Shown here: positions 138 to 13,842 of the stretch, one piece after another
How the letters are laid out: each line of letters begins with the position of its first letter
How positions within the stretch are numbered: position 1 is the first letter of the stretch
NCBI GenBank assembly: GCA_043815135.1
Contig: JBDRJJ010000077.1
Coordinates: 1-13,842 of the forward strand
DNA: 13,842 nucleotides
From: Candidatus Micrarchaeota archaeon
GTDB lineage: Archaea; Micrarchaeota; Micrarchaeia; Burarchaeales; JAKAKT01
Direction: 5' to 3'
Notes under the pieces: model-generated
Told to the model about the DNA's origin: nothing
The model's input: only the letters and a program-made list of their open reading frames with translations
The model's database searches: none
Program-made: the position numbers and the translations under genes

Positions 138-467
138 ATGAACGAGCGGAATGCCGTCCTGGTTGTTGCAATAGCCATTGTGCTCGTTCTCGCGTCCATC
201 CTTTTTCTCCCGAAATTCCAGGAGGCTACAAAACCGGTCCCGCAAACCCAGACTCCGGAATACTGCGAGTCAAAAGGAGCTGCATACAAGGGATTCACAA
301 ACGGTTGCATGGACTCGTGCATTCTTGCGAGGAATCCGGATGTTGTTTGCACCCAGTCGTTGACCTCTGGCTGCGACTGCGGGAAGGAAAAGTGCTGGAA
401 CGGTTTCGAGTGCGAGCCGAACCGCGGAGAGGGCTTCGCCCCCTCCCCAGTTCCAGGGTCCTCCTGA
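138..467 (+). CDS. Small membrane-anchored or secreted cysteine-rich protein (hypothetical)
   Basis: ATG start and an N-terminal hydrophobic segment AVLVVAIAIVLVLASILFL. This is followed by 8 Cys within ~55 aa (CESKG..GC..SC..VC..GCDC..KC..EC) and a Pro/Gly-rich tail. Preferred over the antisense ORF 110..523, whose product is low-complexity. Confidence 0.6.
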   Translation: MNERNAVLVVAIAIVLVLASILFLPKFQEATKPVPQTQTPEYCESKGAAYKGFTNGCMDSCILARNPDVVCTQSLTSGCDCGKEKCWNGFECEPNRGEGFAPSPVPGSS

Positions 468-1298: not shown

Positions 1299-1338
1299 AA
1301 AATCCCTCTCAAGAATGAGTAGGCATTCCATCCAGCTC

Positions 1339-1346
1339 TTTATAAA
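1339..1346 (-). promoter_or_regulatory. TATA-like box TTTATAAA upstream of the PAC2 start
   Basis: Palindromic A/T octamer 41-48 nt upstream of the ATG at 1298, in the divergent intergenic region. Confidence 0.4.
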
Positions 1347-1387
1347 CCTTTTCAGATTCTTCCAAAAAGAATCCGAAGGTCGATACA

Positions 1388-1395
1388 TTAAAATA
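1388..1395 (+). promoter_or_regulatory. TATA-like box TTAAAATA upstream of the plus-strand pilin-like operon
   Basis: Lies 31-38 nt upstream of the TTG at 1426. A GGTG lies 7 nt before that TTG. Confidence 0.3.
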
Positions 1396-1425
1396 CCATC
1401 CGAGAAATAGGTACGGTGCTCTCCA

Positions 1426-1749
1426 TTGCTAGATATAAACGCCCTCGTTTCGGTCTCTTGTTTCATCCTCTTTATGACAGGGGTCTTGTTCATCTATTAC
1501 CTCTCCAAAACATCGCAATACAATGAGGCATCCGAACTCCGGGCAAAACGGAGAATCGAGGACGTTGCGTATTATCTCTCGAAAATGGAAGAGCAGATAG
1601 AGGATTCGGAGTCGCAGCTCCAGAAGAAAATTGATGTCCAGGAGCTTGACACGAGAATAAACCTCTCAATATACGAGAACCTCGTCACAAGAGCGCTTCC
1701 CCAGAAGCTGAGCGCCAGGAAGCGAAAGGTGAGGGAAGATGACGATTGA
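1426..1749 (+). CDS. Single-pass membrane protein with a charged coiled-coil-like tail (hypothetical)
   Basis: The TTG start at 1426 is needed to include a full hydrophobic helix, ALVSVSCFILFMTGVLFIYYL. The next in-frame ATG (1474) would truncate it. The rest is heptad-like and charged (ELRAKRRIEDVAYYLSKMEEQIEDSESQLQKKIDVQELD). The gene overlaps the next one by 11 nt. The start codon is uncertain. Confidence 0.55.
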   Translation: MLDINALVSVSCFILFMTGVLFIYYLSKTSQYNEASELRAKRRIEDVAYYLSKMEEQIEDSESQLQKKIDVQELDTRINLSIYENLVTRALPQKLSARKRKVREDDD

Positions 1750-2464
1750 GGAACTAGGGCTGAGCTCGCAATCGCTTGTGCTGATGCTAGCGACTGCGCT
1801 GTTCCTCTATTGGCTTATGCGATACGCGGGTGGCCTGAAGCGGGAGGTGCACGAGAATCGCGCGAAGCTAGAGGAAGACATGCGCGAGCTCGAGGAGGTG
1901 GCGAAGAAGCTCGAGAACGACCTGGACAAGATGTACGGCAGGCTCGATGCCAAGGCGGACCAAACGCAGCTGGACCTGAAGCTCGAAGAGCTTGAGCGGA
2001 AGAGGGCGCAGATGATACAGAGCGCAGTGCAGCTCAAGAAGAAGGCCCAGGCATCGGTCGAGCTGATTGCCCTGTTCACACTGCTCCTGCTCCCAATAAT
2101 CGCCGGCTTCATTTACGCGTACTCCACTGTTTCAGACTCAAACAAGTTCAAGGCTGATGTCGCCCTGGACAGGATTGGGTCGACGGCAGAGCGGCTCTAT
2201 GTTGAGGGCCCGGGGGCAAGCGCCCAGGTGTTCGTGGACCTTCCCGGAAGCATCGACTCCGCGTCATCATACATTGGCTCTCCCTCTGGGGGGGAAGGGC
2301 CGTATCTATCGCTTAACGTATCCGGCTCGGAAACATTCAGGCTCCTTGCCTCCAACATGTCCGGGAACTGGCAGAATACGACCGGGGGGAAGGTGAAGCC
2401 CGGGTTCAATGCCTTCAACATGACGGTGAATTCATCCGGTTGCGTCGTCATTGTGCCGAGGTGA
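1739..2464 (+). CDS. Chimeric protein: N-terminal TM + coiled-coil module fused to a class III signal peptide (QxSxExxxL, DUF361-type) pilin-like domain
   Basis: ATG preceded by AGGTGA (1726-1731). Residues 1-90 form a TM helix (SLVLMLATALFLYWL) plus a charged heptad region. Residues 92-120 read MIQSAVQLKKKA|QASVELIALFTLLLLPIIAGFIYAY, an exact QxSxExxxL motif followed by a hydrophobic helix. The C-terminal domain has 5 N-x-S/T sequons. Confidence 0.7.
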   Translation: MTIEELGLSSQSLVLMLATALFLYWLMRYAGGLKREVHENRAKLEEDMRELEEVAKKLENDLDKMYGRLDAKADQTQLDLKLEELERKRAQMIQSAVQLKKKAQASVELIALFTLLLLPIIAGFIYAYSTVSDSNKFKADVALDRIGSTAERLYVEGPGASAQVFVDLPGSIDSASSYIGSPSGGEGPYLSLNVSGSETFRLLASNMSGNWQNTTGGKVKPGFNAFNMTVNSSGCVVIVPR

Positions 2465-2468
2465 GCTG

Positions 2469-2846
2469 TTGAGGGCCCAAGTCGCGATTGAATACGTGTT
2501 TGCAGTTTTCATGTGGCTGTTCGTGTGCACGGCCGTCTCATACGCGATAAGCCCATACATATCCGCCCTTGCGTCCCAGTCATCTCTTCGCGCCTATTCC
2601 TCCCAATCAGCCTGGCTTGGCGGGATAGGCTCATCTGATGTTGATGGCCTGAGATTCGCATATCGCCACACAAGGGTTGATGGCAACCTATCCTTCAACA
2701 ACACTTCGGTTGTGCTCGCAACGAAGGGAGACGAGTCCATAGCGGACTATGCAGCCAACTACTCATACTCCGATTTGATTGAGCGGGGCGATAAAGTGCT
2801 CCTGAGGATTCAAGACGGAACTCAGGTTGCAGTGAAGGTGGAATGA
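2469..2846 (+). CDS. Pilin-like protein with a very short class III signal peptide (MRA|QVAIEY...)
   Basis: The TTG at 2469 lies 4 nt after GAGGTGA (2458-2464). The product begins (M)RAQVAIEYVFAVFMWLFVCTAVSYAI, with Q+1, E+5 and a hydrophobic helix, and carries 4 sequons. The track start (TTG 2451) is the alternative and would give a 9-aa leader, MCRGELLRA. Confidence 0.65.
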   Translation: MRAQVAIEYVFAVFMWLFVCTAVSYAISPYISALASQSSLRAYSSQSAWLGGIGSSDVDGLRFAYRHTRVDGNLSFNNTSVVLATKGDESIADYAANYSYSDLIERGDKVLLRIQDGTQVAVKVE

Positions 2847-3347
2847 TTGAGGGCACAAATTGCTTCAATCGACCTCCTGCTATCAACAATAGCCCTCTCG
2901 GTACTCGCCCTCACGCTAATAACATTCATAGAGGCCGAAATCAGGAACACGGAGTCCGCGACCGCAGATGAGAGGCGCGATGCGTTCTCCTTTGCAGCAG
3001 TTCAAGAGCTCGCCCTCACCCCGGGAAGTCCGGAGAACTGGGACATCGATAGCTGCGAGAGAATCGGCCTCTCCTGCGCTGAAGGGGAGCTTTGTGCTGA
3101 AAAAATCTCCCTCCTCTCCTCGCTTTATTCGTCCGATTATAACGGGACAAAAAGGCTCCTGGGCCTAGGGGCATACGATGTTTCAATCCTCATATGCGCG
3201 CCTTACGACTATTCATCATGCGATTACAACTTCTCAACGCAGGCGAGGGAGGACGACCGCGCGGGCTCAAACCACGTCTCAAGGGCGGAGGCGCTCTCGA
3301 CACTGGGGGGAAAAACAGTTTCAGTAATCATTTACGCCTGGGAGTAG
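2847..3347 (+). CDS. Pilin-like protein with a very short class III signal peptide (MRA|QIASIDLLL...)
   Basis: The TTG at 2847 lies 4 nt after AGGTGGA (2836-2842) and immediately follows the upstream TGA stop. The product begins (M)RAQIASIDLLLSTIALSVLALTLITFI. The globular part has 5 Cys and 2 sequons. Confidence 0.65.
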   Translation: MRAQIASIDLLLSTIALSVLALTLITFIEAEIRNTESATADERRDAFSFAAVQELALTPGSPENWDIDSCERIGLSCAEGELCAEKISLLSSLYSSDYNGTKRLLGLGAYDVSILICAPYDYSSCDYNFSTQAREDDRAGSNHVSRAEALSTLGGKTVSVIIYAWE

Positions 3348-3348
3348 G

Positions 3349-3807
3349 CTAGCAGTCCGAATACTCCATCTGGTCGTAGACTCCGTTTTCAGCCACAACT
3401 GATATCCGGTTGTATCCTGTTGGGAGCGCAGAAGACGTATTGAATCGGGCAAGCTCCCCAGGCCTCCAGGCGTCAATAGTCGAGTATTCTACCCAGGAAT
3501 TGTCCCTATATAAGTGGATTGAATTAACCCCGAGCGCTGCGCCGCTCAGGAACACGTTAGTTGCATTCGCGTTTATGAAAGACGAGCCCACATTCTTAAC
3601 ATAGACATAAGTCGACCCGCCAAGATAGCAGGAGTCTCCGGTTATCTTTATCGAGGTCCTGAGCTGGGAGGAAAGGGCATCAGACTTTGCGTTGAAGCTT
3701 CCTGCAAGCGAGCTGACCGAAATAGACACGACCCCGACAATCGCGAGCGCGACTATCACGGACGCTATGAAGAAAATCGCCTCTGTGACGCTTGTTCCGA
3801 ATCCCAT
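3349..3807 (-). CDS. ArlF/ArlG (FlaF/FlaG)-family-like protein, short form
   Basis: The N-terminus, MGFGTSVTEAIFFIASVIVALAIVGVV, has no basic leader. That matches the unprocessed archaellin-like N-termini of FlaF/FlaG as I remember them. It is followed by SQLRTSIKITGD...YVYVKNVGSS, a beta-sandwich-type pattern. An AGGTG lies 4 nt upstream of the ATG. Which of ArlF or ArlG it is cannot be decided. Confidence 0.6.
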   Translation of the reverse strand: MGFGTSVTEAIFFIASVIVALAIVGVVSISVSSLAGSFNAKSDALSSQLRTSIKITGDSCYLGGSTYVYVKNVGSSFINANATNVFLSGAALGVNSIHLYRDNSWVEYSTIDAWRPGELARFNTSSALPTGYNRISVVAENGVYDQMEYSDC

Positions 3808-3818
3808 GAATACACCTG

Positions 3819-4784
3819 CTAGCTGCAGTCGTAGGTCGCACGCGCAGTCGCGCCGTTTTCGGTGACCACCGAAACAGCGTGTTCCTCGCTGCTGCTACTC
3901 ATATCGTAAAATACTATATTAATGTTTTTAGCCGGGGCAATCGTGAGGGCGCTCAAGTTCGAGTGGGAGTAAGTGACGACTAAATATGGGTCATTTTCCC
4001 TTCCGAAGGACTCGGTCTGCCACGGTCTGGCTATCGCGTAGTTGTTGTTGCCAGGGTCCCAATTGCTCCTCAGCTCGAAATCAGTGTCCCCCTGCCTGTT
4101 TATGTCGCTCTTTGGCACGCTCATGTTCTTCCAGCCAACTGTCCCGAGATAGTTGCTCGTGGCAAAATACGTGAAGTTGTTCCAGGCGGATTGGGTCAGG
4201 ACCCCGATTGCGTTGAATCCATAGTAATAATCGACATTCCAGGTCACGCTCGTGTCGCTCACAGTCTCGTTTACCTTCAGGTACAGCTCGGCATCGGTTA
4301 TGTCCGCCCCGTCGTTTAGGGAGGAGGTGTCGAAGCTGAAGTAGCTCCGATAATACGTGTCCCCGCCCCTCCTGTCCCTCCCTATCCAGGACACATTCGT
4401 AGTATTGTAAACAGTATAAGACGAGCCGTCAAATTGAATGTACCCGTCAGCACTGCTCGAGGAATAGAACTTCGCAGTCGTAGTCGCGTTCTTCAGCTGG
4501 AGAACCTCGTTGTTGTCGAACACGGTGAGCTTCCTGAAAGCGAGCTGCGTTGAGCCCGTGTTGTTGACTACCACTGTCAGGTTATACTTATTGCACGACC
4601 CCTGGACCGAGATGCCCGTTATTTGAAGCGAGGACTGCTGGGCCGAGGAAACGATTTGCCCCTGCTCCCCCAAGCCACCTGAAATGCCCCGAATCCCGGA
4701 TTCGACCACCGGGTAGGCAATCACGAGCGCCCCGGCTACCCCCAACAGAATTATTATCACTGCAGCAGAGGCGCTTAACCCCAT
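3819..4784 (-). CDS. ArlF/ArlG-family-like protein with a ~175-aa inserted beta-rich (DNRLRE-like) module
   Basis: N-terminus MGLSASAAVIIILLGVAGALVIAY, then SSLQITGISV...YNLTVVVNNTGST. The C-terminal strands (HAVSVVTENGATARATYDCS) align with those of the 152-aa neighbour (RISVVAENGVYDQMEYSDC). Residues ~100-275 have no counterpart there and contain RSYFSFDTSSL, ITDAELYLKV, SVTWN and DPYLVVTY. There are 9 N-x-S/T sequons. Confidence 0.6.
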   Translation of the reverse strand: MGLSASAAVIIILLGVAGALVIAYPVVESGIRGISGGLGEQGQIVSSAQQSSLQITGISVQGSCNKYNLTVVVNNTGSTQLAFRKLTVFDNNEVLQLKNATTTAKFYSSSSADGYIQFDGSSYTVYNTTNVSWIGRDRRGGDTYYRSYFSFDTSSLNDGADITDAELYLKVNETVSDTSVTWNVDYYYGFNAIGVLTQSAWNNFTYFATSNYLGTVGWKNMSVPKSDINRQGDTDFELRSNWDPGNNNYAIARPWQTESFGRENDPYLVVTYSHSNLSALTIAPAKNINIVFYDMSSSSEEHAVSVVTENGATARATYDCS

Positions 4785-4816
4785 TCAGTTCCCCGAATAG
4801 GAATCGCTACAGCTGC

Positions 4817-4824
4817 TTAAATTA
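4817..4824 (-). promoter_or_regulatory. TATA-like box (TAATTTAA on the minus strand) upstream of the 3819..4784 gene
   Basis: Lies 33-40 nt upstream of the ATG at 4784, directly after the oligo-T tract that follows the MinD-like gene. Confidence 0.35.
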
Positions 4825-4831
4825 CTTTTGG

Positions 4832-4844
4832 AAAAAAGAAAAAA
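4832..4844 (-). terminator. Oligo-T tract TTTTTTCTTTTTT (minus strand) abutting the MinD-like stop codon
   Basis: The plus strand reads AAAAAAGAAAAAA at 4832-4844, and the stop codon (minus) is at 4845-4847. This is a typical archaeal oligo-T terminator signal. Confidence 0.45.
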
Positions 4845-5591
4845 CTAGAAGAACCTTGCGACAAGCTGCCTGAAGTAGCTCGGAGGCGAGTACGAAACAT
4901 CCGCAAGCGCTGCCCCGAATTTCTTCATCTCCACCGAATACTTGCTGTACGGCTTGTGGTGGACGACCGGTCTTCCATATTCGACGCTCTCAATCACGTT
5001 CTCGTCGTATGGGAGGATTCCGAGAACATCTGCCCCAATCCAGTCCTCTGCTTCCTTCTCGACCTTGCCCCAGTTCCTCCTGACCTTGTTCACCACTGTC
5101 CCGAGGACATCGAGGCCATGCTTCTCAGCAACCTTCTTGGTCTTCAAAGTGTTCGCATACGAGGTGATTTCCGGGGTAGTAAGGAGCACCACCTTGTCCG
5201 CGAGCTTCATGGATTCCACGGTGTTCTCGCCCAATGTCCCGGGCGCGTCCAGGAGAATCACGTCTGAGATGCCTTCCATGTTATCGACGATTTCGCCCAT
5301 GTGCTTGGGCTTCACAACGCTCATGTCATCTACAGATAAGCTTGAAGCGACTACTCGCACCCCGGTCGGGTGGTCGAACACAGCGTCCTTCACATGGACC
5401 CCCTCTGCAACTACGTCGTGTATTGTCTTCTTCGGAAACGGCGGGCCGAGGATGCACCCCAAGTCCCCATTAGTAAGGTTCCCGTCCAGAATCACAACAT
5501 CGACTCCGAATTGCGATAGCGCAATGCCAAGGTTCGCCACAAAGTTGCTCTTTCCAACCCCTCCTTTTCCTGAGGCCACAGTTATTATCAT
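4845..5591 (-). CDS. MinD/ParA/FlhG-family ATPase (deviant Walker A)
   Basis: MIITVASGKGGVGKSNFVANLG carries a deviant Walker A (KGGxGKS) with the signature lysine. Other motifs are VVILDGNLTNGDLG (switch region) and VILLDAPG (Walker B). The C-terminal YFRQLVARFF could be an amphipathic membrane-targeting helix. I use the ATG at 5591, preceded by GCGAGGG, and not the GTG at 5651. Confidence 0.85.
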   Translation of the reverse strand: MIITVASGKGGVGKSNFVANLGIALSQFGVDVVILDGNLTNGDLGCILGPPFPKKTIHDVVAEGVHVKDAVFDHPTGVRVVASSLSVDDMSVVKPKHMGEIVDNMEGISDVILLDAPGTLGENTVESMKLADKVVLLTTPEITSYANTLKTKKVAEKHGLDVLGTVVNKVRRNWGKVEKEAEDWIGADVLGILPYDENVIESVEYGRPVVHHKPYSKYSVEMKKFGAALADVSYSPPSYFRQLVARFF

Positions 5592-6177
5592 ATTTATCCC
5601 TCGCCCATTTTTTCCTAAGCTGGTGTTTAAGATAAGCCGCCTTCTCCTCACGGGAAAGCGAATCGAAATTCACGTTGTCCCATAAGCTGGCAGTTTCAAC
5701 TTCAGTAATAGCGGGAGCAGCCTTGCTGCCCTGGCTTTTTTCCTCAACAATAATCGCGTTCTCCAGCTCCATAATCGGGTCGAAAGGCTCTGCTTTCTTC
5801 GGCATTTCGGGTCCCTGGGGCCCGCTCACGTCCCCGGGCAGCACTTTCCCAAGCGAATCCGCGCTCTCGCAAACCTTTGCCTCCGCCTCGCACTGAGTCG
5901 CATCCTGGGAGACCGCGATGTCTTTCAAGGAAAGCTTCGGTTCGTCTATCTCCCCGTTCTTGACTTTCCAGTAGTACATTTTCTCCATTTCAAGCTCAGC
6001 CCCTATCACGTCTGATGGCAGGCAATACCCAAGCTCCCTGACATTCCTTATGAACCCTTCCCAGTTGACGTGGTCCCAGGACCCATCATTGGCTCTCACA
6101 AAATCTTGCATGAGGTTGGAAGATTTGAGCCTCTCGAGCTCATCCGTATCGAAAGCTATCGCCGACTGCTCTTCCAT
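5470..6177 (-). CDS. Acidic hypothetical protein; the 3' end overlaps the MinD-like gene out of frame
   Basis: ATG at 6177. The ~190-aa body is acidic (WDHVNWEGFIRNVRELGY..., EMEKMYYWKVKNGE...) with no motif I recognise. The last ~40 codons (WARDKYDNNCGLRKRRGWKEQLCGEPWHC...) are an out-of-frame reading of the MinD P-loop region, so the true C-terminus is doubtful. Confidence 0.55.
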   Translation of the reverse strand: MEEQSAIAFDTDELERLKSSNLMQDFVRANDGSWDHVNWEGFIRNVRELGYCLPSDVIGAELEMEKMYYWKVKNGEIDEPKLSLKDIAVSQDATQCEAEAKVCESADSLGKVLPGDVSGPQGPEMPKKAEPFDPIMELENAIIVEEKSQGSKAAPAITEVETASLWDNVNFDSLSREEKAAYLKHQLRKKWARDKYDNNCGLRKRRGWKEQLCGEPWHCAIAIRSRCCDSGREPY

Positions 6178-6332
6178 CTTGTTTACCCCGGACTTTCAAA
6201 CTGGTCGCTAAAATTGTCCCTGCCGGGGTATTTAAGCATTTGCTTTCTTCCACTAATTTTCGAGGGAGAGAGCCAAAACGAATTAACGGTTCAAGCAGAG
6301 TCCCATAGCTTCAACGATTGCAAACGCTAAAC

Positions 6333-6340
6333 ATTTAAGT
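6333..6340 (+). promoter_or_regulatory. TATA-like box ATTTAAGT upstream of the hydrogenase operon
   Basis: Lies 34-41 nt upstream of the ATG at 6374, within a 196-nt divergent intergenic region. Confidence 0.35.
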
Positions 6341-6373
6341 TCATCCTGTTCCAATCATTTTGCTCGTGGTTAG

Positions 6374-7318
6374 ATGCACAGAATGGCGAAGGGCGACCTT
6401 TCAAAGTTTCTCGATTTCCTCTCGAAAAGAGGAGAGCTCATAGTTCCTGTGAAAAGGGACGGGGTTTCATTCTTCAAGGGTTACGAGAAGGGCGACAGGC
6501 TTTTCTTGGGCAAGGGAAATACGGACTATTCCCCGAAGCAGTTTTTCTTTCCATACAAAGAAGTAATGTATTATTACAGCAAGCAGGGGGACTTCGAGTG
6601 TGCGCAGAAGCCATCAAAGAGAATCCTCTTCGGGGTTCGGCCCTGCGACCTTCATGCAATTGCAGTGACCGACATGTTCTTTTCAGACGAGCCGGCGGAT
6701 CCGCACTACCATGAAAGAAGGAGGAACACCGCGCTCATTGCAGTCGACTGCACGACCCCCGGGAAGAACTGCTTCTGCGATTCGCTTGATAAAAGGAACC
6801 CAATCGGCCACGACATACTCATAACAGTCGACAAGGAATACTACCACGCAAGCTCTGCCACCCAGGAAGGGAAGAATATTCTCGAAGAGAGCGGACTATT
6901 TGCCGAAACAGATGACTCCCCCAAGATTAAGAAAATCCCATGCAAGAAGAAGGCCGAACCAGTCGACCAGTCCAAAGTCAAATGGGAAAAATGGGGGAAG
7001 GCGTGCTTTGCCTGCGCTGCATGCACAAGCGTCTGCCCCACCTGCACGTGCTTTGATGTGGAGGACGAGATTCAATTGAATGGGGGGAAGACCGAGAGGT
7101 CAAGGATTTGGGCGTCCTGCTTCACCAAGGATTTCACGACAGTGACTGGCGGCCACTGCTTCAGGCCGGAGAGGAAAGAGATGCTGAGGCAGTTTGTGAA
7201 TCACAAGTTCCCATATTTCAAGGAGAAGTTCGGTGTGACGATGTGCGTCGGCTGCGGGCGATGCATCACCGTTTGCACTGCAAAGATTGACATATCAAAA
7301 ATGATTAGCGGAAAATAA
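6374..7318 (+). CDS. hydB: Group 3b [NiFe]-hydrogenase (sulfhydrogenase) beta subunit, AsrA-like 4Fe-4S protein
   Basis: Two ferredoxin-type motifs, CFACAACTSVCPTC and CVGCGRCITVC, plus the CDLHAI and CTTPGKNCFC blocks. It is the first gene in a beta-gamma-delta-alpha order, as in the Pyrococcus hydBGDA operon. The start could be 6383 (MAKGD...). Confidence 0.8.
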   Translation: MHRMAKGDLSKFLDFLSKRGELIVPVKRDGVSFFKGYEKGDRLFLGKGNTDYSPKQFFFPYKEVMYYYSKQGDFECAQKPSKRILFGVRPCDLHAIAVTDMFFSDEPADPHYHERRRNTALIAVDCTTPGKNCFCDSLDKRNPIGHDILITVDKEYYHASSATQEGKNILEESGLFAETDDSPKIKKIPCKKKAEPVDQSKVKWEKWGKACFACAACTSVCPTCTCFDVEDEIQLNGGKTERSRIWASCFTKDFTTVTGGHCFRPERKEMLRQFVNHKFPYFKEKFGVTMCVGCGRCITVCTAKIDISKMISGK

Positions 7319-7355
7319 TTATGCAAAAATTGAATGGAATGTTGTAGGTGCTCGA

Positions 7356-8150
7356 ATGGAAGACCCGTATTTACCAAAGAAAGTGAAAATCCTCAAAATC
7401 ATACAGGAGACTTCCGACATCAAGACCTTCATTGTTGAGAACGTCCTCCCAGCGCATTCCCCCGGTCAGTTCGTAGAACTTACAGTTTACGGGGTTGGCG
7501 AGGCCCCAATCTCAATCTCGAGCGCCTACCCGGATATGATACTCACCGTGAAAAAACTCGGCACAGTGACGAGCGCCTTGTTCGAGCTAAGGGAGGGAGA
7601 CTGCATCGGCATTCGCGGCCCCTATGGCAAGGGGTGGCCGATGGAGCAACTGAAGAACAGGAACGCAATACTCATCTGCGGAGGAGTTGGGCTTCCGCCG
7701 CTGAGGGGGATAGTCTACTCGAGGCTCAAGGAAAAGAGCGGCTCGACCATTCTCTGCTACGGGGCGAGGACCCCGGAAGACATGGTCTACAGGAGCGAGC
7801 TTGAGGACTGGACCAAAAACGGAATTTCAGTTAATACCACTGTCGATACCTGCCCGATAGGCTGGAAAGGCAATGTCGGAGTCGTAACCTGCATCATGGA
7901 CAGGGCATTAACGAAGGACGAGAACGCAATATGCGTGATGTGCGGACCCCCGGTGATGATGAAGTTTGCGGCAAAGATGCTCATCGACAAGGGTTTTTCC
8001 AAGGACCAGATTTTCGTTTCATTGGAGAGGATGATGAAGTGCGGGGTCGGAAAGTGCGGCCACTGCATGGCGGGCGGAAAATGCGTCTGCAAGGAAGGAC
8101 CTGTTTTCAGGTTTGATGAACTGGAGGGTCTTCCGGAGAGAATGCTGTGA
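7356..8150 (+). CDS. hydG: Group 3b hydrogenase gamma subunit (FAD/NAD(P)-binding, 2Fe-2S; AsrB/PyrK-like)
   Basis: GQFVELTVYGVGEAPISISS is the flavin-binding barrel, CGGVGLPPLRG is the GGxGxxP nucleotide-binding motif, and the C-terminal CGVGKCGHCMAGGKCVCKEGPVF is the 2Fe-2S motif. An AGGTG lies 7 nt upstream of the ATG. Confidence 0.85.
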   Translation: MEDPYLPKKVKILKIIQETSDIKTFIVENVLPAHSPGQFVELTVYGVGEAPISISSAYPDMILTVKKLGTVTSALFELREGDCIGIRGPYGKGWPMEQLKNRNAILICGGVGLPPLRGIVYSRLKEKSGSTILCYGARTPEDMVYRSELEDWTKNGISVNTTVDTCPIGWKGNVGVVTCIMDRALTKDENAICVMCGPPVMMKFAAKMLIDKGFSKDQIFVSLERMMKCGVGKCGHCMAGGKCVCKEGPVFRFDELEGLPERML

Positions 8151-8154
8151 TAAC

Positions 8155-8919
8155 ATGAAGAAGAAAAGAGTCGCAATATTCAGCCTGACCTGCTGCGCGG
8201 GTTGCCAGCTTGAAGTTCTTGACAACCCGGAGCTATTGGACATGCTCGAACACATCGACATCGTCAAGTTTCCGATAGCGATTGCAAGGAACGAGCCGGG
8301 CCCTTATGACATCGTATTTGTTGAGGGAATGGTCACGACTCCGGGAGAGATAGAAATCGTAAAGCGGATTAGGGGCAGCGCAAGATTCCTCATCGCAATT
8401 GGCGCCTGCGCCTGCTACGGGGGAGTCCCGACAATAAGAAACATGCTCCCGCAGAGAGAAGCAGAGTCAATAGTCTATGGGGACAGGAACGAGCACATCC
8501 GCTCGATAAAGCCTACAGGGGTCTCCGAATACGTGAAGGCCGATTACCTGATTCACGGCTGCCCGATAAACAAAGACGAGTTCTCGCAGGTGGTGAAGGC
8601 CCTTCTTGCAGGCAAGCTCCCGCGGGCACACACGCATTCGGTCTGCGTAGAGTGCAAGGCAAAGGGAAACAAGTGCCTATTCAACGAGCAGATATGCATG
8701 GGGCCCATCTCAATTGCAGGCTGCGGGGCAACATGCCCCAGCAACGGCCTTGCCTGCTACTCGTGCCGGGGCCCGAAAGAGGACGCGAACGTGGATGAGT
8801 TCATAATTCTCGCAAGAAAGCAGGGATATCTCGATGCTGAAATCAGGGGACTCCTCCAAAAGTTCGCCTGCACGTCCAAGTACAAAAAATATCTCGAGTG
8901 CCTAGATGGCGAAAAGTGA
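8155..8919 (+). CDS. hydD: Group 3b [NiFe]-hydrogenase small (delta) subunit
   Basis: MKKKRVAIFSLTCCAGCQ, GACACYGG and HGCP match the proximal-cluster ligands of hydrogenase small subunits. CVECKAKGNKC and AGCGATCPSNGLACYSCRGP supply further clusters. I use the ATG at 8155, 4 nt after the gamma stop, rather than the track start at 8113, which overlaps gamma. Confidence 0.85.
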   Translation: MKKKRVAIFSLTCCAGCQLEVLDNPELLDMLEHIDIVKFPIAIARNEPGPYDIVFVEGMVTTPGEIEIVKRIRGSARFLIAIGACACYGGVPTIRNMLPQREAESIVYGDRNEHIRSIKPTGVSEYVKADYLIHGCPINKDEFSQVVKALLAGKLPRAHTHSVCVECKAKGNKCLFNEQICMGPISIAGCGATCPSNGLACYSCRGPKEDANVDEFIILARKQGYLDAEIRGLLQKFACTSKYKKYLECLDGEK

Positions 8920-8928
8920 GTTGTTCCT

Positions 8929-10194
8929 ATGGCGGTAATAAAACTTGACCACATCACAAAAATCGAAGGGCACGGCAGCCTGATTGCCAAGGTCGAGAAC
9001 GGTTTTGTTAGCGAGGTGGAGATGAGGGCCGAGGAAGGGGTTCGCTTCTTCGAGGCATTTGTGCGGGGCCGGAAGTTCCACGAGGTCCCGATACTCACTT
9101 CGCCGATTTGCGGGATATGCAGCCAAGCCCACGTGCTTGCGTCGATTTCAGCGATAGAGCGGGCAATCGGGGTGGAACCCTCGCAGCAGACGAAGGAGAT
9201 GCGCGAGCTCTTGAACATAGGTCAGTACATACAGAGCCACAACATCCATGCGCATTTTCTCGCACTTCCGGATTACCTAGGTTACGGTGACGCCATACAG
9301 ATGATGGACAAGCACGGGGATGCGGTAAGAAGGGCGCTGAAGTTCAAGAGGTGGGCGAGTTCGTTCTGCACCCTCATGGGCGGGAGGGACATGCACCCCG
9401 TGGCCGCGCAGGTGGGGGGATTCACGCATTTCCCGGACAAGAGGAGGCTCTCGGAGATGCTGAAGCTTTTGAAAGAACTGCGGCCAGAGGCAATGAAAGT
9501 CGCTGAGCTCTTCGGCTCTCTCCAATACCCTAAGTTCAAGAGGAAGAAGCCCTACGGCTCCCTTTCAGCAGACAAGGGCTATCCGCTAATCTCTGGTGAC
9601 ATAACCATCGGCTCGATGACGTTCAAGCCCCACGAATACAAGGACTACATTGTCGAGTCAATAAAACCTTATTCTCCGAGCAAGTACTCGCTTTTCAAGG
9701 GTGAGAGCTACTTTGTCGGTGCGCTTGCGAGGGTGAACAACAATCTCCCAAGGCTCTCTGACAACGCCAAGGTGGCAATCTCCCATTCCGAAATAAACTT
9801 CCCGAACGACAACACGTTCGCAAACAACTTTGCCCAGGCAATAGAAATAGTTCATTGCGTGGACAGGGCAATCGAGATACTCGAGAACGCAAATTTCAAG
9901 AAAGAACCCTGGGACCTGAAGAAGATAAAGGTTAATGACGGGAGGGGAGTAGGCACCGCCGAAGCCCCGCGCGGGACGCTCTACCACGATTACACGATAA
10001 GGAAAGGGCTCGTGGAGTCAGCAAACATAATCACCCCAACAGTTCAGAATCTCAACTGCATCGAGGACGACGTGAAAGCATTCCTGCCGGGAATTCTTGA
10101 AAAAGACGAGAAGACAGTAACCATGGAGCTCGAGAAGCTCGTCAGGGCTTTCGACCCCTGCTGCTCCTGCTCGGTTCATTTCATGAAAATCTAG
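8929..10194 (+). CDS. hydA: Group 3b [NiFe]-hydrogenase large (alpha) catalytic subunit
   Basis: N-terminal KIEGHG and PICGICSQAH (CxxC Ni-Fe ligands). C-terminal DPCCSCSVH (second CxxC) is followed by only FMKI before the stop. The 421-aa length fits the short group 3 large subunits. Confidence 0.9.
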   Translation: MAVIKLDHITKIEGHGSLIAKVENGFVSEVEMRAEEGVRFFEAFVRGRKFHEVPILTSPICGICSQAHVLASISAIERAIGVEPSQQTKEMRELLNIGQYIQSHNIHAHFLALPDYLGYGDAIQMMDKHGDAVRRALKFKRWASSFCTLMGGRDMHPVAAQVGGFTHFPDKRRLSEMLKLLKELRPEAMKVAELFGSLQYPKFKRKKPYGSLSADKGYPLISGDITIGSMTFKPHEYKDYIVESIKPYSPSKYSLFKGESYFVGALARVNNNLPRLSDNAKVAISHSEINFPNDNTFANNFAQAIEIVHCVDRAIEILENANFKKEPWDLKKIKVNDGRGVGTAEAPRGTLYHDYTIRKGLVESANIITPTVQNLNCIEDDVKAFLPGILEKDEKTVTMELEKLVRAFDPCCSCSVHFMKI

Positions 10195-10202
10195 GTGGGG
10201 GA

Positions 10203-10727
10203 ATGAAAGCAGATGCTTTCACAATTCTATTGTGCATTTTCTTTATCGGCTGTGCCACCAATAGCAACACGGAGGCGGTTCAGATGGGAGAACTCAAGAT
10301 TTCAAGCCAGGCTTTCAACCACAATGGAATGATTCCGGCGAAATTCACTTGCAAAGGGGAAAACATCAGCCCCGCGCTCGAGATTTCCGGAATCCCGAAT
10401 GGGGCAAAAAGCCTCGCCTTGATTGTGGACGACCCGGATGCTCCGATGGGAACGTGGGTGCACTGGGTAGTCTGGAACATCCAACCAATCCAAAAAATCG
10501 ATGAGGGCTCGGTGCCACCAGGCTCCTCCCAAGGGATAACTGACTTCGGGAAACCCGGGTATGGGGGGCCTTGCCCGCCTTCTGGGACCCATAGGTATTT
10601 CTTCAAGCTTTATGCTCTTGATTCTGTTCTGAACCTGCCGCCAACTTCTAAAAAATCAGACCTGGAGAATGCGATGAAGGGACACATCCTTGAGAAAGCG
10701 GAATTAGTGGGTTTGTTTTCGAAATAG
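10203..10727 (+). CDS. YbhB/YbcL (PEBP / Raf-kinase-inhibitor-like) family protein with a lipoprotein-type signal peptide
   Basis: DDPDAP, W.HW.V.N, GYGGPCPP.G.HRY.F.LYALD are PEBP hallmark motifs. The N-terminus, MKADAFTILLCIFFIGCATNS, is a hydrophobic core plus an FIGC lipobox-like motif. The start lies 8 nt after the hydA stop and is preceded by AGGTGGGGG. Confidence 0.85.
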   Translation: MKADAFTILLCIFFIGCATNSNTEAVQMGELKISSQAFNHNGMIPAKFTCKGENISPALEISGIPNGAKSLALIVDDPDAPMGTWVHWVVWNIQPIQKIDEGSVPPGSSQGITDFGKPGYGGPCPPSGTHRYFFKLYALDSVLNLPPTSKKSDLENAMKGHILEKAELVGLFSK

Positions 10728-11108
10728 TTCGCTCAGCAATTCCCCAACTTCCCCTACTGCCTCGCTTGCTTCCATCCCCCCGGGGATTCCCACAACCTTT
10801 ATCGCTTTTCCCTCTTTTGCAAGCAGCTTCAGATAAAACGCGACATCGATGTCATGCGCAGTAATCGTTCTCGAGGTTTTCAGCTCCTCCACATCCACAA
10901 ATCGAACCCGCTCGAGCCCCTTCACAACGTCAAGGACAACAACGGAATCCAGCTCGCTTGCGGAAAGTTTGTCAATCTCCCCGAAATCAAGCCCGCACTC
11001 GATAACCTCGAGCCCGCGGAGTTTTCTTTTTTTGATTATTTTTCCCACTTCGAGCGCAAGCCTGTCTTTTTCATTATGGGAATTGCCGAAGCAGAGCAGT
11101 TTCATCAT
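10704..11108 (-). CDS. Hydrogenase maturation endopeptidase (HycI/HybD-family-like)
   Basis: KLLCFGNSHNEKDRLALEVG matches the GNxxxxDD-type motif, VVVLDVV the second acidic ligand block, and TAHDIDVAFYLKLL the conserved His block. The 134-aa size and the location beside a hydrogenase operon also fit. The family is divergent, so this is motif-level only. Confidence 0.65.
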   Translation of the reverse strand: MMKLLCFGNSHNEKDRLALEVGKIIKKRKLRGLEVIECGLDFGEIDKLSASELDSVVVLDVVKGLERVRFVDVEELKTSRTITAHDIDVAFYLKLLAKEGKAIKVVGIPGGMEASEAVGEVGELLSELFRKQTH

Positions 11109-11117
11109 AACGGCCCC

Positions 11118-11867
11118 CTAACTCAGCACGTTTGCCTTGTTGAGGTTGAACATTCCGTATCCTACCGCAATAAGCGCCCAAGTGGAGAAAAGCACCAAGA
11201 AGAGCAGCTTCCACCACCTGCCTTTCGAGCGCTCAAGGTGGAAGTCGAACCCATGCGCGACTATGTGCGAGACCAAATAAATCGCCGCGACATTGATGAA
11301 GCCTTCCGCGCCCCGGGTCCAAGGATAAGAGAGCGCAATAACCGCAAGGACAAGGCCATGAATAAGGCTGTCCTTTACCCCGTGATTCACGGAAATCCTT
11401 AGCTGCGCAAGAAACGCAGTCACAAACAGAACTACCATGGCAGCAGCGAACATCGAGCCCATGGCCGAGATGTTCGTTCCCTGAATCCTGATTCCCAAAA
11501 AAAGCATCGCATACGGGGCAGCAATAATCGCAATCATCGAGCTCCAGCTTCTCATTGAGGGGAAAATCGAGTGGTAAGACCAGCTCTCGACAAAAATGCT
11601 CCTGCCTTTCGGGTCCTCGAACACCCTCCCAGCGTAGACGGACCTCTTCCCATACTTCTTTTTCTTGTCCTCAGTCCTTATGCGGGAGAGTACATTGTCC
11701 TCCCCATATGGCCCCTCATAGCCGCTCGGGGTTTCAATGCGCACATGGTCCTCGGGGATATCATACTCAGGGGTCTTGTTGCTCTTGGGCATGAACCCCC
11801 CCGCGCTGTTATCCCATTGGAAAGTCCAATCATCGGCCGTCTTTTTATTCCTACGTGCCCTCGCCAT
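11118..11867 (-). CDS. Hypothetical membrane protein (soluble basic N-domain plus ~5 TM helices containing His residues)
   Basis: ATG at 11867. The ~100-aa hydrophilic N-domain is followed by hydrophobic segments (MIAIIAAPYAMLFLGI, MGSMFAAAMVVLFVTAFLAQL, LIHGLVLAVIALSYPW, INVAAIYLVSHIVAHGF, WWKLLFLVLFSTWALIAVGYGMF). It ends 9 nt before the protease start on the same strand. No family recognised. Confidence 0.6.
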   Translation of the reverse strand: MARARRNKKTADDWTFQWDNSAGGFMPKSNKTPEYDIPEDHVRIETPSGYEGPYGEDNVLSRIRTEDKKKKYGKRSVYAGRVFEDPKGRSIFVESWSYHSIFPSMRSWSSMIAIIAAPYAMLFLGIRIQGTNISAMGSMFAAAMVVLFVTAFLAQLRISVNHGVKDSLIHGLVLAVIALSYPWTRGAEGFINVAAIYLVSHIVAHGFDFHLERSKGRWWKLLFLVLFSTWALIAVGYGMFNLNKANVLS

Positions 11868-11888
11868 CGATTAGTTGTAAAGCAAACA

Positions 11889-11898
11889 ATATAATAAA
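11889..11898. promoter_or_regulatory. A/T-rich box ATATAATAAA in the divergent spacer between the membrane-protein gene and the NfeD gene
   Basis: Lies ~22 nt from the minus-strand ATG at 11867 and ~20 nt from the plus-strand GTG at 11918. It is flanked by a short inverted repeat, AAACAA/TTGTTT (11884-11889 / 11901-11906). Confidence 0.3.
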
Positions 11899-11917
11899 CG
11901 TTGTTTCTAATTATTTC

Positions 11918-12352
11918 GTGGTTGATTTCGCTATAGGCAAGGTTTTTATCGTCGTGGGAACCCTAATGCTTGCAGGCGAGCTCGCAATTCCCGGTTTTTT
12001 CATGGGTGGGGTGGGGGTCGCATTCATTGTAGCAGGTGCCCTCATGGAATTGGGAATCAATTCCCCGGAATGGATTGCAACTGCAAGCATTCTGGCCGGC
12101 TTGTTCTCAATACTATTCTTTTATTTCGTGGGCAGGTGGCTCACAGGCCACGTCAAGGTCGCAACCGGCACAGAGTCCATAGTCGGGGCGAGGGGAAAGG
12201 TAATCGAGTCGCTTGATGAGGGCAAATGCGTTGTCAAGATAAAGGGCGAGGACTGGAGTGCTGAATGCGAGGGCAGGCTCAAGAAAGGGGAAAAGGTAGA
12301 GGTAACGGGACACGAGGGAGTCCACCTGACAGTTAAAAAAGCAGAGGACTGA
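11918..12352 (+). CDS. NfeD-family protein, short form (TM helices plus C-terminal OB-fold; no protease domain)
   Basis: Hydrophobic N-half (GELAIPGFFMGGVGVAFIVAGALMELG..., ILAGLFSILFFYFVGRWL). The C-terminal GARGKVIESLDEGKCVVKIKGEDWSAECEGRLKKGEKVEVTGHEGVHLTV is the typical NfeD OB-domain pattern. It sits directly upstream of an SPFH gene, the classic pairing. The start is ambiguous: GTG 11918, GTG 11954 or ATG 11966. The track start at 11855 would overlap the divergent gene. Confidence 0.75.
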   Translation: MVDFAIGKVFIVVGTLMLAGELAIPGFFMGGVGVAFIVAGALMELGINSPEWIATASILAGLFSILFFYFVGRWLTGHVKVATGTESIVGARGKVIESLDEGKCVVKIKGEDWSAECEGRLKKGEKVEVTGHEGVHLTVKKAED

Positions 12353-12356
12353 TGGA

Positions 12357-13217
12357 ATGTCGTTCTTCTATGTATTGCTCGCTGCAATCGTCCTGAGCAT
12401 TCTTTCAAGGACGATACTTGTCCTAGACCAGTACGAGCGCGCGGTCAGGTATAGGCTAGGCAAGTTTCTCGATGTTCTTGGCCCGGGAGTCACAATAATA
12501 TGGCCTGGGCTGGATGCGGTCGAGGTCGTGGACATGCGGGTGAAGACCCTCGACATACCCGAGCAGAAGGTCATAACAAAGGACAATGCAGTGATAATGA
12601 TAGATGCATTCCTGTACTACGTGCCGGTGAGGCCGGACCTTCTCATCCTAAAAGTAAAGGACTTCGAGTATGCGATAGTCCAGCTCGCCCAGACTACACT
12701 CAGAAGCATCGTTGGAGAGCACACCTTCGACCAAGCAATATCGAACAGGGAGCAGGTGAACTTAGAGATTATGGACAAGCTTGACGATGTGGTCGAGAGA
12801 TGGGGCGCCAAGCTTATTGCCATAGAGATACGGGAGCTCCTTCCAGCTTCGAGGAAACTCACGTTCGCAATGAACGTCCAAGTAGCTGGGGAAAGAAAAA
12901 GGCGCGCGGCAGTCCTTGAGGCAGAGGGGTTCAAGACTGCAGCTATTCTGAACGCCGAGGGAGACAGGGACCAGGCCTGCATAGAGGCAGAAGGCACTAG
13001 GCAGGCGATGATAATACTGGCAAACGGCGAGGCGGAGGCGCTGAAGAGGGTGGCTGTCCAAGCTTCCGAGAGCATAACCGGGCCTGCGATGACGCTCTGG
13101 CAGTTGGGGATGGTCGAGGAGCTAGGCAAAAACAAGGACTCGACCCTCTTGATGCCGTATAACATTAAGAGTTTAACAAAGGCTTTCCGAGGAATCGAAG
13201 GAAAGCGGGGGGATTGA
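12357..13217 (+). CDS. SPFH/band 7 (stomatin/prohibitin-like) protein, divergent paralog
   Basis: N-terminal TM helix, then YERAVRYRLGKF..GPG, ITKDNA, LAQTTLRSIVGE and a C-terminal AVLEAEG..AILNAEG repeat-helix region. It starts 4 nt after the NfeD stop. Confidence 0.85.
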   Translation: MSFFYVLLAAIVLSILSRTILVLDQYERAVRYRLGKFLDVLGPGVTIIWPGLDAVEVVDMRVKTLDIPEQKVITKDNAVIMIDAFLYYVPVRPDLLILKVKDFEYAIVQLAQTTLRSIVGEHTFDQAISNREQVNLEIMDKLDDVVERWGAKLIAIEIRELLPASRKLTFAMNVQVAGERKRRAAVLEAEGFKTAAILNAEGDRDQACIEAEGTRQAMIILANGEAEALKRVAVQASESITGPAMTLWQLGMVEELGKNKDSTLLMPYNIKSLTKAFRGIEGKRGD

Positions 13218-13218
13218 A

Positions 13219-13842
13219 ATGGCTGACGTGACAGTGTGGGTTTTTGTTTTGTCGATAGTGCTTGGAGTAGTAGCACTTCTACTGGCCCTTTCGGCTATAA
13301 AGATTTTCAAGGAATACGAACGGGGGGTCAAGTTCACCCTGGGGAAATTCACCGGAGTGATAGGCCCTGGTTTCACCATCATAATACCCGTAATAGAAAA
13401 GGCAGTAATGGTCGATTTGCGTACGAAGACTCTCGAGGTCCCGAGACAGGACGTCATCACGAAGGATAATGCGACAGTCGGAGTCGACGCAGTAATATAC
13501 TACAAGGTCACTGACCCGGCGAAAGTCGTTCTCACTGTCGAGGACTTCGCATATGCAACAGTACGGCTCGCCCAGACGACTCTGAGGAGCATCATCGGCG
13601 ACATGATTCTCGATGATGTGCTCAGCAAGAGGGAGGTCATAAACACAAAGCTTCGGACAACCCTCGATGAGGCGACCGACAAATGGGGAGTGAAAGCAGA
13701 AGCAGTCGAGATAAAGGAAGTCGAGCCTCCCACTGCAATACAGGATGCGATGACAAAGCAGATGGCAGCAGAGAGAACCAAGAGGGCAACTATTCTCGAG
13801 GCAGAGGGAAGCAAGCAGGCAAAGATTCTGCAGGCAGAAGGG
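13219..13842 (+). CDS. SPFH/band 7 stomatin-like protein, canonical paralog (3' partial; runs off the window)
   Basis: Not in the ORF track because no stop is reached. My own translation from the ATG at 13219 gives MADVTVWVFVLSIVLGVVALLLALSAIKIFKEYERGVKFTLGKFTGVIGPGFTIIIP...ITKDNATV...LAQTTLRSIIGD...EIKEVEPPTAIQDAMTKQMAAERTKRATILEAEG, and the frame is open to 13842. It starts 1 nt after the previous stop. Confidence 0.85.
   Translation, partial: MADVTVWVFVLSIVLGVVALLLALSAIKIFKEYERGVKFTLGKFTGVIGPGFTIIIPVIEKAVMVDLRTKTLEVPRQDVITKDNATVGVDAVIYYKVTDPAKVVLTVEDFAYATVRLAQTTLRSIIGDMILDDVLSKREVINTKLRTTLDEATDKWGVKAEAVEIKEVEPPTAIQDAMTKQMAAERTKRATILEAEGSKQAKILQAEG

Follow-up and report, generated by a model that had tools for sequence, protein, structure and literature searches.

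The DNA stretch analysed here (the window, 13,842 bp), which represents one entire 13.8-kb contig of a Micrarchaeota archaeon, harbours two convergent operons, in which genes for ArlF- and ArlG-type proteins, i.e. relatives of the archaellum stator, face four plus-strand genes, three of which encode proteins with pilin-type class III signals. The conserved unit of this locus is a six-gene core consisting of the four plus-strand genes and the facing arlF-arlG pair, and this core was found in convergent orientation in five Micrarchaeota contigs and in one contig outside this clade (L010, 40-41% identity). We see about an even chance that it represents an accessory, envelope-associated locus of an archaellum-type machine, with a break of the arl locus behind arlG and with the genes for motor, filament and peptidase situated elsewhere.

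Conservation of the convergent locus

The gene map was built from the list of open reading frames (ORFs) and from Pfam and NCBIfam family scans of the window ORFs. All eight ORFs that the first-pass annotation had assigned to the locus were found in the ORF list at the coordinates given there, and the two gene sets meet head-on as it had described: the stop codon of the last plus-strand gene ends at 3347 and that of the ArlG-type gene, the last of the minus-strand operon, occupies positions 3349-3351, i.e. the operon ends are 1 nt apart. The plus-strand genes, which are called g1 to g4 here, are densely packed, with overlaps of 11 nt between g1 and g2 and of 14 nt between g2 and g3, and with a gap of 0 nt between g3 and g4. 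The eight-gene synteny recurs in relatives, because the same genes were found in the same order in four further Micrarchaeota contigs (L001 to L004), and further fragments of the locus are present on L011 and L012. In L004, unrelated genes take the place of the hydrogenase flank next to an intact module.

The ArlG-like family was profiled against 5.8 billion proteins and the gene contexts of the relatives were then looked up. The nearest relative outside the clade is located on L010 (40% identity of the ArlG-like protein), where the genes for ArlC (with a FlaC-type motif), ArlD/E (PF04659), ArlF and ArlG are convergent with homologues of g4 (E value 1e-33), g3 (6e-21), g2 (4e-106) and g1 (8e-20). 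The MinD-type ATPase and the acidic protein of the window locus are missing from L010, and both outer flanks differ. Different genes can occupy the 5' part of the stator operon, namely those for ArlC and ArlD/E in L010 and those for the acidic protein and MinD in the window clade. Six other relatives of ArlG (L007, L008, L013 to L016) are encoded in ordinary operons with arlH-arlI-arlJ directly after arlG. The arlG gene of the window adjoins an ArlF-type gene but is not followed by arlH-arlI-arlJ. Nevertheless, the arrangement is closer to arl loci than the first-pass annotation had assumed, since L010 shows arlC, arlD/E, arlF and arlG facing the same four genes. This layout, together with the grouping of the ArlF and ArlG proteins with canonical types (see below), makes the locus look like a rearranged arl locus with an added pilin-like operon rather than a free-standing hybrid system, as had also been considered in the first-pass annotation.

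Some of the arl operons retrieved in this search show features of their own. On L007, ArlI (3874-6858) comprises 994 amino acids (aa) compared to about 550 aa elsewhere, and the large insertion splitting its ATPase domain is likely an intein. On L015, two tandem T2SSE-type ATPase genes follow arlH (2734-5940), i.e. ArlI is duplicated in an otherwise canonical operon, while the Woesearchaeota arl operon on L008 contains a second ArlF/G-like gene (14701-15162) right after arlJ. A lone ArlG-like gene was found among glycosyltransferase genes on the 137-kb contig L005 (10001-10459), with no ArlF or ArlHIJ genes within 10 kb; its product shares 43% identity with the window protein by BLASTP and 41% in the tree alignment. 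Genome and metagenome scans with the 241-aa g2 family returned close Micrarchaeota relatives alone. The peptide patterns used in these scans were poorly specific and, hence, the true distribution is under-sampled.

It could be argued that both gene sets are chance neighbours, i.e. that a leftover arlF-arlG operon with a general MinD lies beside the minor-pilin operon of a pilus encoded elsewhere and that their adjacency reflects common ancestry and low rearrangement. The gene sets are convergent and therefore not co-transcribed, and all close examples come from one phylum-level group. The PAC2 and hydrogenase genes next to the locus also keep their adjacency in several relatives, which points to a general conservation of synteny, and pilin sets are often encoded apart from the ATPase and platform genes (PMC4858521). 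However, the six-gene core persists at 40% identity though one flank changed in L004 and both flanks changed in L010, and in the window, L001 and L002 only a few nucleotides lie between the stop codons of both operons. Altogether, we regard chance neighbourhood as unlikely.

The coding capacity of the locus is also supported by selection. When the window was compared with the fragment L011 (89% nucleotide identity, dS unsaturated at 0.34-0.58), the ratio of nonsynonymous to synonymous substitutions (dN/dS) amounted to 0.063 for g2, 0.13 for g3, 0.11 for g4, 0.038 for the ArlG-type and 0.094 for the ArlF-type gene. These values (0.04-0.13 for the five genes tested) together with the conserved synteny indicate that all eight genes are real. 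They also reject the idea that the reduced DPANN genome retains degenerating leftovers of lost systems for motility or pili and forms no working structure from them, an idea that could be based on the core machinery missing from the contig, on a frameshift close to the stop codon of the acidic gene and on the general description of DPANN archaea as having lost motility. Moreover, the ORFs are intact in every relative examined, the sequence motifs and Cys pairs described below are invariant, and the frameshift is confined to the last four codons and could stem from the assembly, which makes decay highly improbable.

ArlG- and ArlF-type proteins of the minus-strand operon

The 152-aa protein encoded at 3349..3807 on the minus strand matches the archaeal flagellin family (PF01917, Arch_flagellin) with 60.4 bits at a cut-off of 29.5 and with aa 6-146 covered. 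Its best NCBIfam matches are ArlG (NF052591, 69.5 bits, E 3e-19) and then ArlF (54.5 bits). It combines an archaellin-like N-terminal helix (MGFGTSVTEAIFFIA) with a beta-sandwich and displays 31-36% identity to named or operon-embedded ArlG proteins. The 321-aa protein encoded upstream (3819..4784, minus strand) matches the ArlF family NF052590 with 51.5 bits (E 1e-13) over aa 1-101 only. The partial coverage is due to an inserted beta domain (about aa 98-282; 3939..4493, minus strand), which splits the ArlF core into aa 1-98 and 282-321; the C-terminal 40 residues resemble the C-terminus of the ArlG-like protein. Consistently, the L004 orthologue, which comprises 141 aa without the insertion, gives an end-to-end ArlF match (positions 1-137, 60.6 bits), and the ArlF orthologue of L010 (143 aa) is insertion-free as well.

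Both window proteins (69.5 and 51.5 bits) score under the NCBIfam equivalog cut-off of 110 bits. As a control, operon-embedded DPANN proteins were scored, which gave 68.9 bits for ArlG and 24.8 bits for ArlF of L008 and 119 bits for ArlG and 63.8 bits for ArlF of L007. Since these controls span the same range of 25-69 bits, with the L007 ArlG alone reaching 119 bits, the cut-off says nothing against membership in the families. In a crude neighbour-joining tree calculated without bootstraps, the module-type ArlG sequences form one group with those of L010 and L005 beside canonical euryarchaeal-type ArlG, and the module-type ArlF sequences join canonical ArlF. ArlF and ArlG are known as mutual paralogues, and the ArlF-like and ArlG-like families of the locus are paralogous too (hhalign probability 92.6%). 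PDB sequence-profile searches gave a weak N-terminal match to 'Flagellin' chains alone for the ArlG-like family (E 0.019) and zero matches for the ArlF-like family. Judged from the family matches, the 152-aa product is of the ArlG type and the 321-aa product of the ArlF type, which agrees with the first-pass annotation of the minus-strand operon as encoding an acidic protein, an ATPase with deviant Walker A motif and ArlF/ArlG types (PF01917, NCBIfam and TIGR01969 matches).

The inserted ArlF domain of ~180 aa is all-beta and DNRLRE-like, possibly with a jelly-roll or carbohydrate-binding-module-like fold; its match to NF033679 (DNRLRE; E 4e-5, 23.8 bits) is under the 34-bit cut-off. It is present in the window and in L001 to L003 but missing from L004 (12094-12519) and L010 (1598-2029), hence it was gained or lost inside the clade. 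The AlphaFold2 model of the 321-aa protein is of low confidence (predicted local distance difference test score, pLDDT, of 57), and Foldseek searches with this weak model returned generic beta domains, among them BcsB and a chondroitin-sulfate carbohydrate-binding module, with E values of about 1e-4 to 1e-3. These matches give a hint that the inserted domain may be carbohydrate- or envelope-binding.

Furthermore, each of the two proteins contains an invariant Cys pair, with one Cys early in the beta domain and the other at the C-terminus, namely C60/C152 in the ArlG-type and C64/C320 in the ArlF-type protein. The pairs are kept in L010 and missing from the canonical ArlG of L007, and their pattern suggests clade-specific disulfides.

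Class III signals in the plus-strand operon

The first gene of the plus-strand operon, g1 (1426..1749, 107 aa), encodes a protein with a short N-terminus, a single transmembrane (TM) helix (aa 6-24) and a charged helical cytoplasmic tail, in line with the positive-inside pattern. The protein is paralogous to g2 over the N-terminal third of the latter (hhalign probability 74%, E 2.7e-5), and both families cross-match in reciprocal hmmsearch runs (E 2e-6 to 8e-3). In g2 (1739..2464, 241 aa), a first TM helix (6-24) and helices 10-69 and 75-98, which include a predicted cytoplasmic helical hairpin at about aa 25-98, precede the internal class III motif K102-A-Q-A-S-V-E108 (2042..2062), a strong second TM helix (107-125) and a beta domain. 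Hence, the two modules that the first-pass annotation had distributed over the plus-strand genes, a TM plus coiled-coil part and a pilin part, are both present in g2, and g1 carries the TM helix with the charged helical tail.

In the g3 protein (2451..2846, 131 aa), the motif R8-A-Q-V-A-I-E-Y15 (nt 2472-2495) is accompanied by a TM helix and by a small domain that is rich in beta structure and contains NxS/T sites. In g4 (2847..3347, 166 aa), the motif R2-A-Q-I-A-S-I-D9 and a TM helix are followed by a Cys-rich extracellular domain with the conserved residues G60-x-P62-x-x-W65. The three families have the N-terminal segment alone in common, as is the case with unrelated pilins. The common pattern, which is invariant across orthologues, consists of [KR][AG]Q, an acidic residue at +5 or +6 and a hydrophobic helix; the motif QxSxE that had originally been read for the plus-strand genes applies to g2 and not to g3 and g4. 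Among 1825 six-frame ORF segments from 15 sequences, motif and hydrophobic tail were matched 22 times in the three families plus once by an antisense false positive, hence the motif is not a chance match. Class III signals have been defined by a hydrophilic leader ending with Gly or Ala, by 20-25 hydrophobic residues and often by an acidic residue at +5 (PMC10191384). The Gly/Ala end, the hydrophobic helix and the acidic residue are found in g2 (KKA|QASVE), g3 (RA|QVAIE) and g4 (RA|QIASID). Owing to the positive-inside topology the motif lies at the cytoplasmic face, where prepilin peptidases are known to cut (PMC10191384). These alignments, together with the model of g2 described below, support the earlier assignment of Q(+1) class III pilin-type N-termini to g2, g3 and g4.

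Regarding the short hydrophilic cytoplasmic leader, g3 (9 aa) and g4 (3 aa) fit the definition, whereas g2 fails, because 103 aa including a TM helix precede its site. The g2 motif reads K-K-[AG]-Q-[AV]-S-[IV]-E and then a hydrophobic helix across homologues, with K102, [AG]103, Q104, S106 and E108 being invariant in 11-17 homologues including that of L010 (41% identity), and the linker length varies by 0-19 residues. Cleavage of g2 is predicted from the motif between A103 and Q104. A separate pilin gene starting internally at about 2012 was considered and rejected, since the Met is not conserved and g2 is a single continuous ORF in all 17 homologues (17/17). The AlphaFold2 model, for which 17 homologues were used, shows a helix (105-156) and six strands (161-240) at pLDDT 80-89, and the N-terminal helices 10-69 and 75-98 at low confidence. 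According to this model, the mature part of g2 would form a long helix with a beta head, i.e. the 'lollipop' shape of pilins. A PDB sequence-profile search with the g2 family found designed or GCN4 coiled coils only. An internal class III site behind a TM leader is without precedent in the literature examined.

The label 'DUF361-type' used in the first-pass annotation could not be maintained. The corresponding family PF04021 (Class_IIIsignal, formerly DUF361; cut-off 23.7 bits) gives 12.0 bits for the internal g2 segment, 12.6 bits for g3 of the window and its L003 orthologue and 14.1 bits for g3 of L004 (E 0.05-0.14), thus all values of 12-14 bits stay under the threshold, and it does not match g4. 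The g4 family, which has 80 representative homologues (E<=1e-3) among 1.84 billion proteins, with those read beginning with KGQ, RGQ or KAQ, is nearer to Pfam DUF7287. This family is matched by 11 of 76 g4 relatives at E<=0.01 (best E 2.8e-7); its gathering score of 27 bits is reached by P0159 (27.7 bits) as the sole one of ten g4 relatives read, and g4 of the window itself has no match at E<=1. DUF7287 proteins are like g4 in length (about 160-180 aa), in the N-terminal class III-like segment and in the G-x-P-x-x-W region. From these sequence similarities, the g4 family appears to be a distant relative of DUF7287. A tblastn search of plasmids with a DUF7287-type g4 relative gave no match, our literature search found no paper mentioning DUF7287-9, and the PDB sequence-profile search with the g4 family returned a single insignificant match (E 0.32).

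MinD-type ATPase and acidic protein

The third minus-strand product is an archaeal MinD-type ATPase (4845..5591, 248 aa) with the deviant Walker A motif GKGGVGKS and matches to the Pfam CbiA/ParA families; it barely reaches the cut-off of TIGR01969 (202.4 versus 201.75 bits). Its start was corrected from 5651 to 5591, because MinD of the relatives comprises 248-250 aa, and it is 92% identical to MinD of L004. The C-terminus SYFRQLVARFF (PPSYFRQLVARFF; 4845-4890, minus strand) looks amphipathic and, as far as can be judged from its residues, looks like the membrane-targeting helix of bacterial MinD.

The operon starts with the gene of an acidic, soluble protein (5594..6177, minus strand), for which the relatives likewise required a correction. 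Restoring a 1-nt deletion near 5607, where the window reads 'aaaaaatggg' and L004 reads 'aaaaaattggg', shortens the ORF from 235 to 194 aa (pI 4.5, stop codon at 5594-5596) and gives the end RKKLGEG-stop 2 nt before the MinD ATG as in all relatives. Through the deletion, the acidic gene loses the frame of its final four codons and gains a tail of 40 aa, with an overlap of 121 nt with the MinD gene; the deletion represents either an assembly error or a genuine frameshift. The protein consists of two conserved blocks around a variable acidic linker and has no Pfam or NCBIfam family match. It is found in all five Micrarchaeota loci and missing from L010. Its interpretation as a divergent ArlD/E was rejected (hhalign probability 0.1%), and matches to PF04659 or PF05377, which would indicate ArlC/D/E, were not found in the window.

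Neighbouring genes

Upstream of the plus-strand operon, the window contains a gene for a small Cys-rich protein (138-467, plus strand) and one for a PAC2 proteasome chaperone on the minus strand (567-1298, with the ORF extending to 1493), which was identified by family scan and by the lengths in relatives. The PAC2 ORF has 308 aa in the window compared to 243 aa in the orthologues, and this comparison makes the Met at about 1298 the probable start. With this start, PAC2 and the plus-strand operon are separated by a divergent intergenic stretch of 127 nt (1299..1425), a putative divergent promoter region, in which the TATA-like AT-rich elements TTTATAAA (near 1339-1346) and ATTAAAAT (near 1388-1395) could be read as putative promoter elements; TTTATAAA is palindromic. 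A few kb past PAC2, L001 (16296-19510), L003 (109-3368) and L004 (1709-4908) contain a conserved pair of large genes (about 760 and about 315 aa) with no recorded Pfam domains; the window ends before the corresponding point.

On the other side, the acidic gene is separated by a divergent, AT-rich intergenic region with TATA-like stretches, i.e. candidate promoter elements (6178..6373), from the genes of a four-subunit NiFe hydrogenase on the plus strand (6374-10194; Fer4_22, NAD-binding/DHODB Fe-S, Oxidored_q6 and NiFeSe large subunit matches). Such an enzyme is a notable finding for a DPANN genome. The hydrogenase adjoins the module in L001 to L003, not in L004. Beyond it, genes for a PEBP protein, a HycI-like protease (10704-11108, minus strand; with 22.2 bits just under the cut-off of 23), a membrane protein and an NfeD-SPFH (stomatin-like) gene pair (11855-13842, with a second SPFH-like ORF beginning at 13236) complete the contig.

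Discussion

Collectively, our data are consistent with a function of the locus in an archaellum-type machine. ArlF and ArlG form the archaellum stator and are regarded as unique to and defining for the archaellum (PMC12488501; preprint 10.64898/2026.04.22.720090). Because of this defining role and because of the ArlC/D/E genes on L010, an archaellum-type machine is the most economical reading. In this machine, ArlG and ArlF would form a periplasmic stator that ties the motor to the envelope in the way known from archaella, and the inserted ArlF domain would add an envelope- or glycan-binding surface. MinD, aided by the acidic protein, may control where or whether the machine assembles, with both proteins probably taking the operon position that is held by ArlC-ArlD/E in L010. 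A prepilin peptidase encoded elsewhere would cut the three class III proteins between [AG] and Q, and the processed proteins might act as low-abundance minor subunits and prime or cap a filament, for which the genes of major subunit, ATPase and platform would likewise lie elsewhere. The cut of the 241-aa precursor would free a pilin and a membrane-anchored cytoplasmic helical hairpin at a ratio of 1:1, and the released hairpin, like the 107-aa paralogue, could serve as an ArlX-like scaffold at the motor. From their conserved adjacency we infer that the pilin-like proteins work with the ArlF/G pair. The pilin-like operon would then provide added minor subunits and scaffolds of the archaellum-type machine; otherwise, it is a neighbour serving another pilus.

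Several observations weigh against a role in an archaellum. Gln at +1 of a class III signal is a typical trait of Epd-type pilins and not one of archaellins. The family scans detected no archaellin, T2SSE ATPase, T2SSF platform protein or A24 prepilin peptidase among the window ORFs, as the first-pass annotation had noticed, and genes for archaellin, ArlH, ArlI, ArlJ or peptidase were also not found in the 10-kb flanks of the module on L001, L003 and L004; the earlier suggestion of an accessory module for machinery encoded elsewhere is compatible with this finding and still stands. The four-gene set was not found near canonical DPANN arl genes in L005 to L009 and L013 to L014 (up to 10 kb on each side where the contig allows), and independent lineages with the six-gene core are two only. 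Convergent adjacency is weaker evidence than co-transcription, and Foldseek searches with the g2 model gave no significant solved pilin (best E 0.26). Moreover, one cultured Micrarchaeota relative, Mia14, is reported to have two pilus systems and no archaellum genes (PMC5498576), and MinD-like ATPases are known from clade 1 pilus loci, along with numerous minor pilins and additional membrane proteins (PMC4858521).

In a rival reading, the locus could be part of an Epd/system 1-type adhesion pilus that does not rotate, has recruited ArlF/G as envelope anchor and plays no role in swimming. The several Gln(+1) class III proteins with an acidic residue at +5 or +6, here from three genes, and a FleN/MinD-family ATPase beside extra small membrane proteins are also found in Epd/clade 1 loci of Methanococcus, Thermococcus and some DPANN archaea (PMC4858521; preprint). 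Micrarchaeota have been reported with clade 1 and clade 2 pili and mostly without archaellum (PMC5498576; PMC8561730); system 1 is common among them, often with a MinD/FleN ATPase and extra membrane proteins, and ArlH/I/J were not found nearby in our case. However, ArlF/G have so far been described in archaella only and in no described Epd locus, and L010 has the archaellum-specific ArlC and ArlD/E upstream of ArlF-ArlG with the same pilin set adjoining. Neither a system 1 ATPase nor a double platform gene or EppA were found in the window or in the flanks of L001 to L004 and L010, and a DUF2341 adhesin is lacking from the window. The PF04021 threshold is not reached, and the 166-aa g4 family relates to DUF7287 and not to a named Epd pilin family. 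An Epd-type pilus therefore appears somewhat unlikely to us.

The archaellum-type reading is further illustrated by comparison with known loci. Euryarchaeal-type archaellum loci (arlB-arlC/D/E-arlF-arlG-arlH-arlI-arlJ) share with the window the order of ArlF and then ArlG and the archaellin-like helices at the N-termini; such operons also harbour the nearest homologues from outside the clade (L007, L008, L013 to L016), and L010 keeps arlC and arlD/E upstream. The window differs by the missing arlH-I-J after arlG, by a contig without archaellin gene, by acidic protein and MinD in place of arlC/D/E, by the 180-aa ArlF insertion, by the convergent Q(+1) class III operon and by the Cys pairs that are missing from L007 ArlG. 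The archaella and chemosensory arrays of Haloferax volcanii are positioned by MinD4, an archaeal MinD-family ATPase likewise tied to an archaellum-type machine; MinD4 is encoded outside the arl operon, whereas MinD of the window is located directly upstream of arlF-arlG and paired with the acidic protein. More generally, MinD-like ATPases accompany several archaeal type IV pilus loci (PMC4858521).

ArlX of Thermoproteota archaella, which supports the motor core (PMC12488501), resembles g1 and the N-terminal part of g2 regarding the TM helix, the cytoplasmic helical or coiled-coil region and the stator genes nearby. The proteins g1 and g2 are, however, much shorter, show no similarity to ArlX in Pfam or NCBIfam, and one copy is fused before a pilin; they are not a simple ArlX-type replacement, because L010 has ArlC/D/E as well. 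A MinD/ParA-type ATPase together with several minor pilin-like proteins is also characteristic for the accessory set of bacterial Tad pili (TadZ/CpaE, TadE/TadF/TadG). The g3 residues Q-V-A-I-E-Y resemble the Flp/TadE signature 'xxxxEY'. In contrast to Tad loci, the window has no Pfam TadE match and no secretin or Rcp proteins, the host is an archaeon and ArlF/G are present. Tad pili are thought to be derived from archaeal Epd pili (preprint).

All parts of the locus come from known families or kinds, while the arrangement is new. The literature examined contains no account of ArlF/G detached from arlHIJ, of ArlF/G and MinD in one operon, of the four-gene set or of a class III site behind a TM leader. 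In a more far-reaching interpretation, the locus would specify an ArlF/G-anchored type IV filament machine with Q(+1) pilin-like subunits that are not archaellins, in which a membrane-anchored coiled-coil leader of 103 aa is removed by a single cut that yields subunit and scaffold in equal amounts. We consider this distinctly unlikely. If true, it would represent a new class of type IV filament with an archaellum stator uncoupled from archaellins, and the class III signal would have a new use, namely for processing within a precursor.

At present, ArlF and ArlG count as the markers by which an archaellum is defined and as the components that enabled rotation. In this locus they are found under strong selection yet apart from the motor genes, together with MinD and facing dedicated pilin-like genes, which is of relevance for archaeal cell-surface and DPANN biology. 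If the two operons cooperate, either the archaella of some DPANN archaea contain additional minor subunits and another type of cytoplasmic control module, or stator proteins can serve a pilus. Either outcome would bear on the evolution of rotation from type IV pili and on the way in which ultra-small symbiotic archaea attach or move to their hosts.

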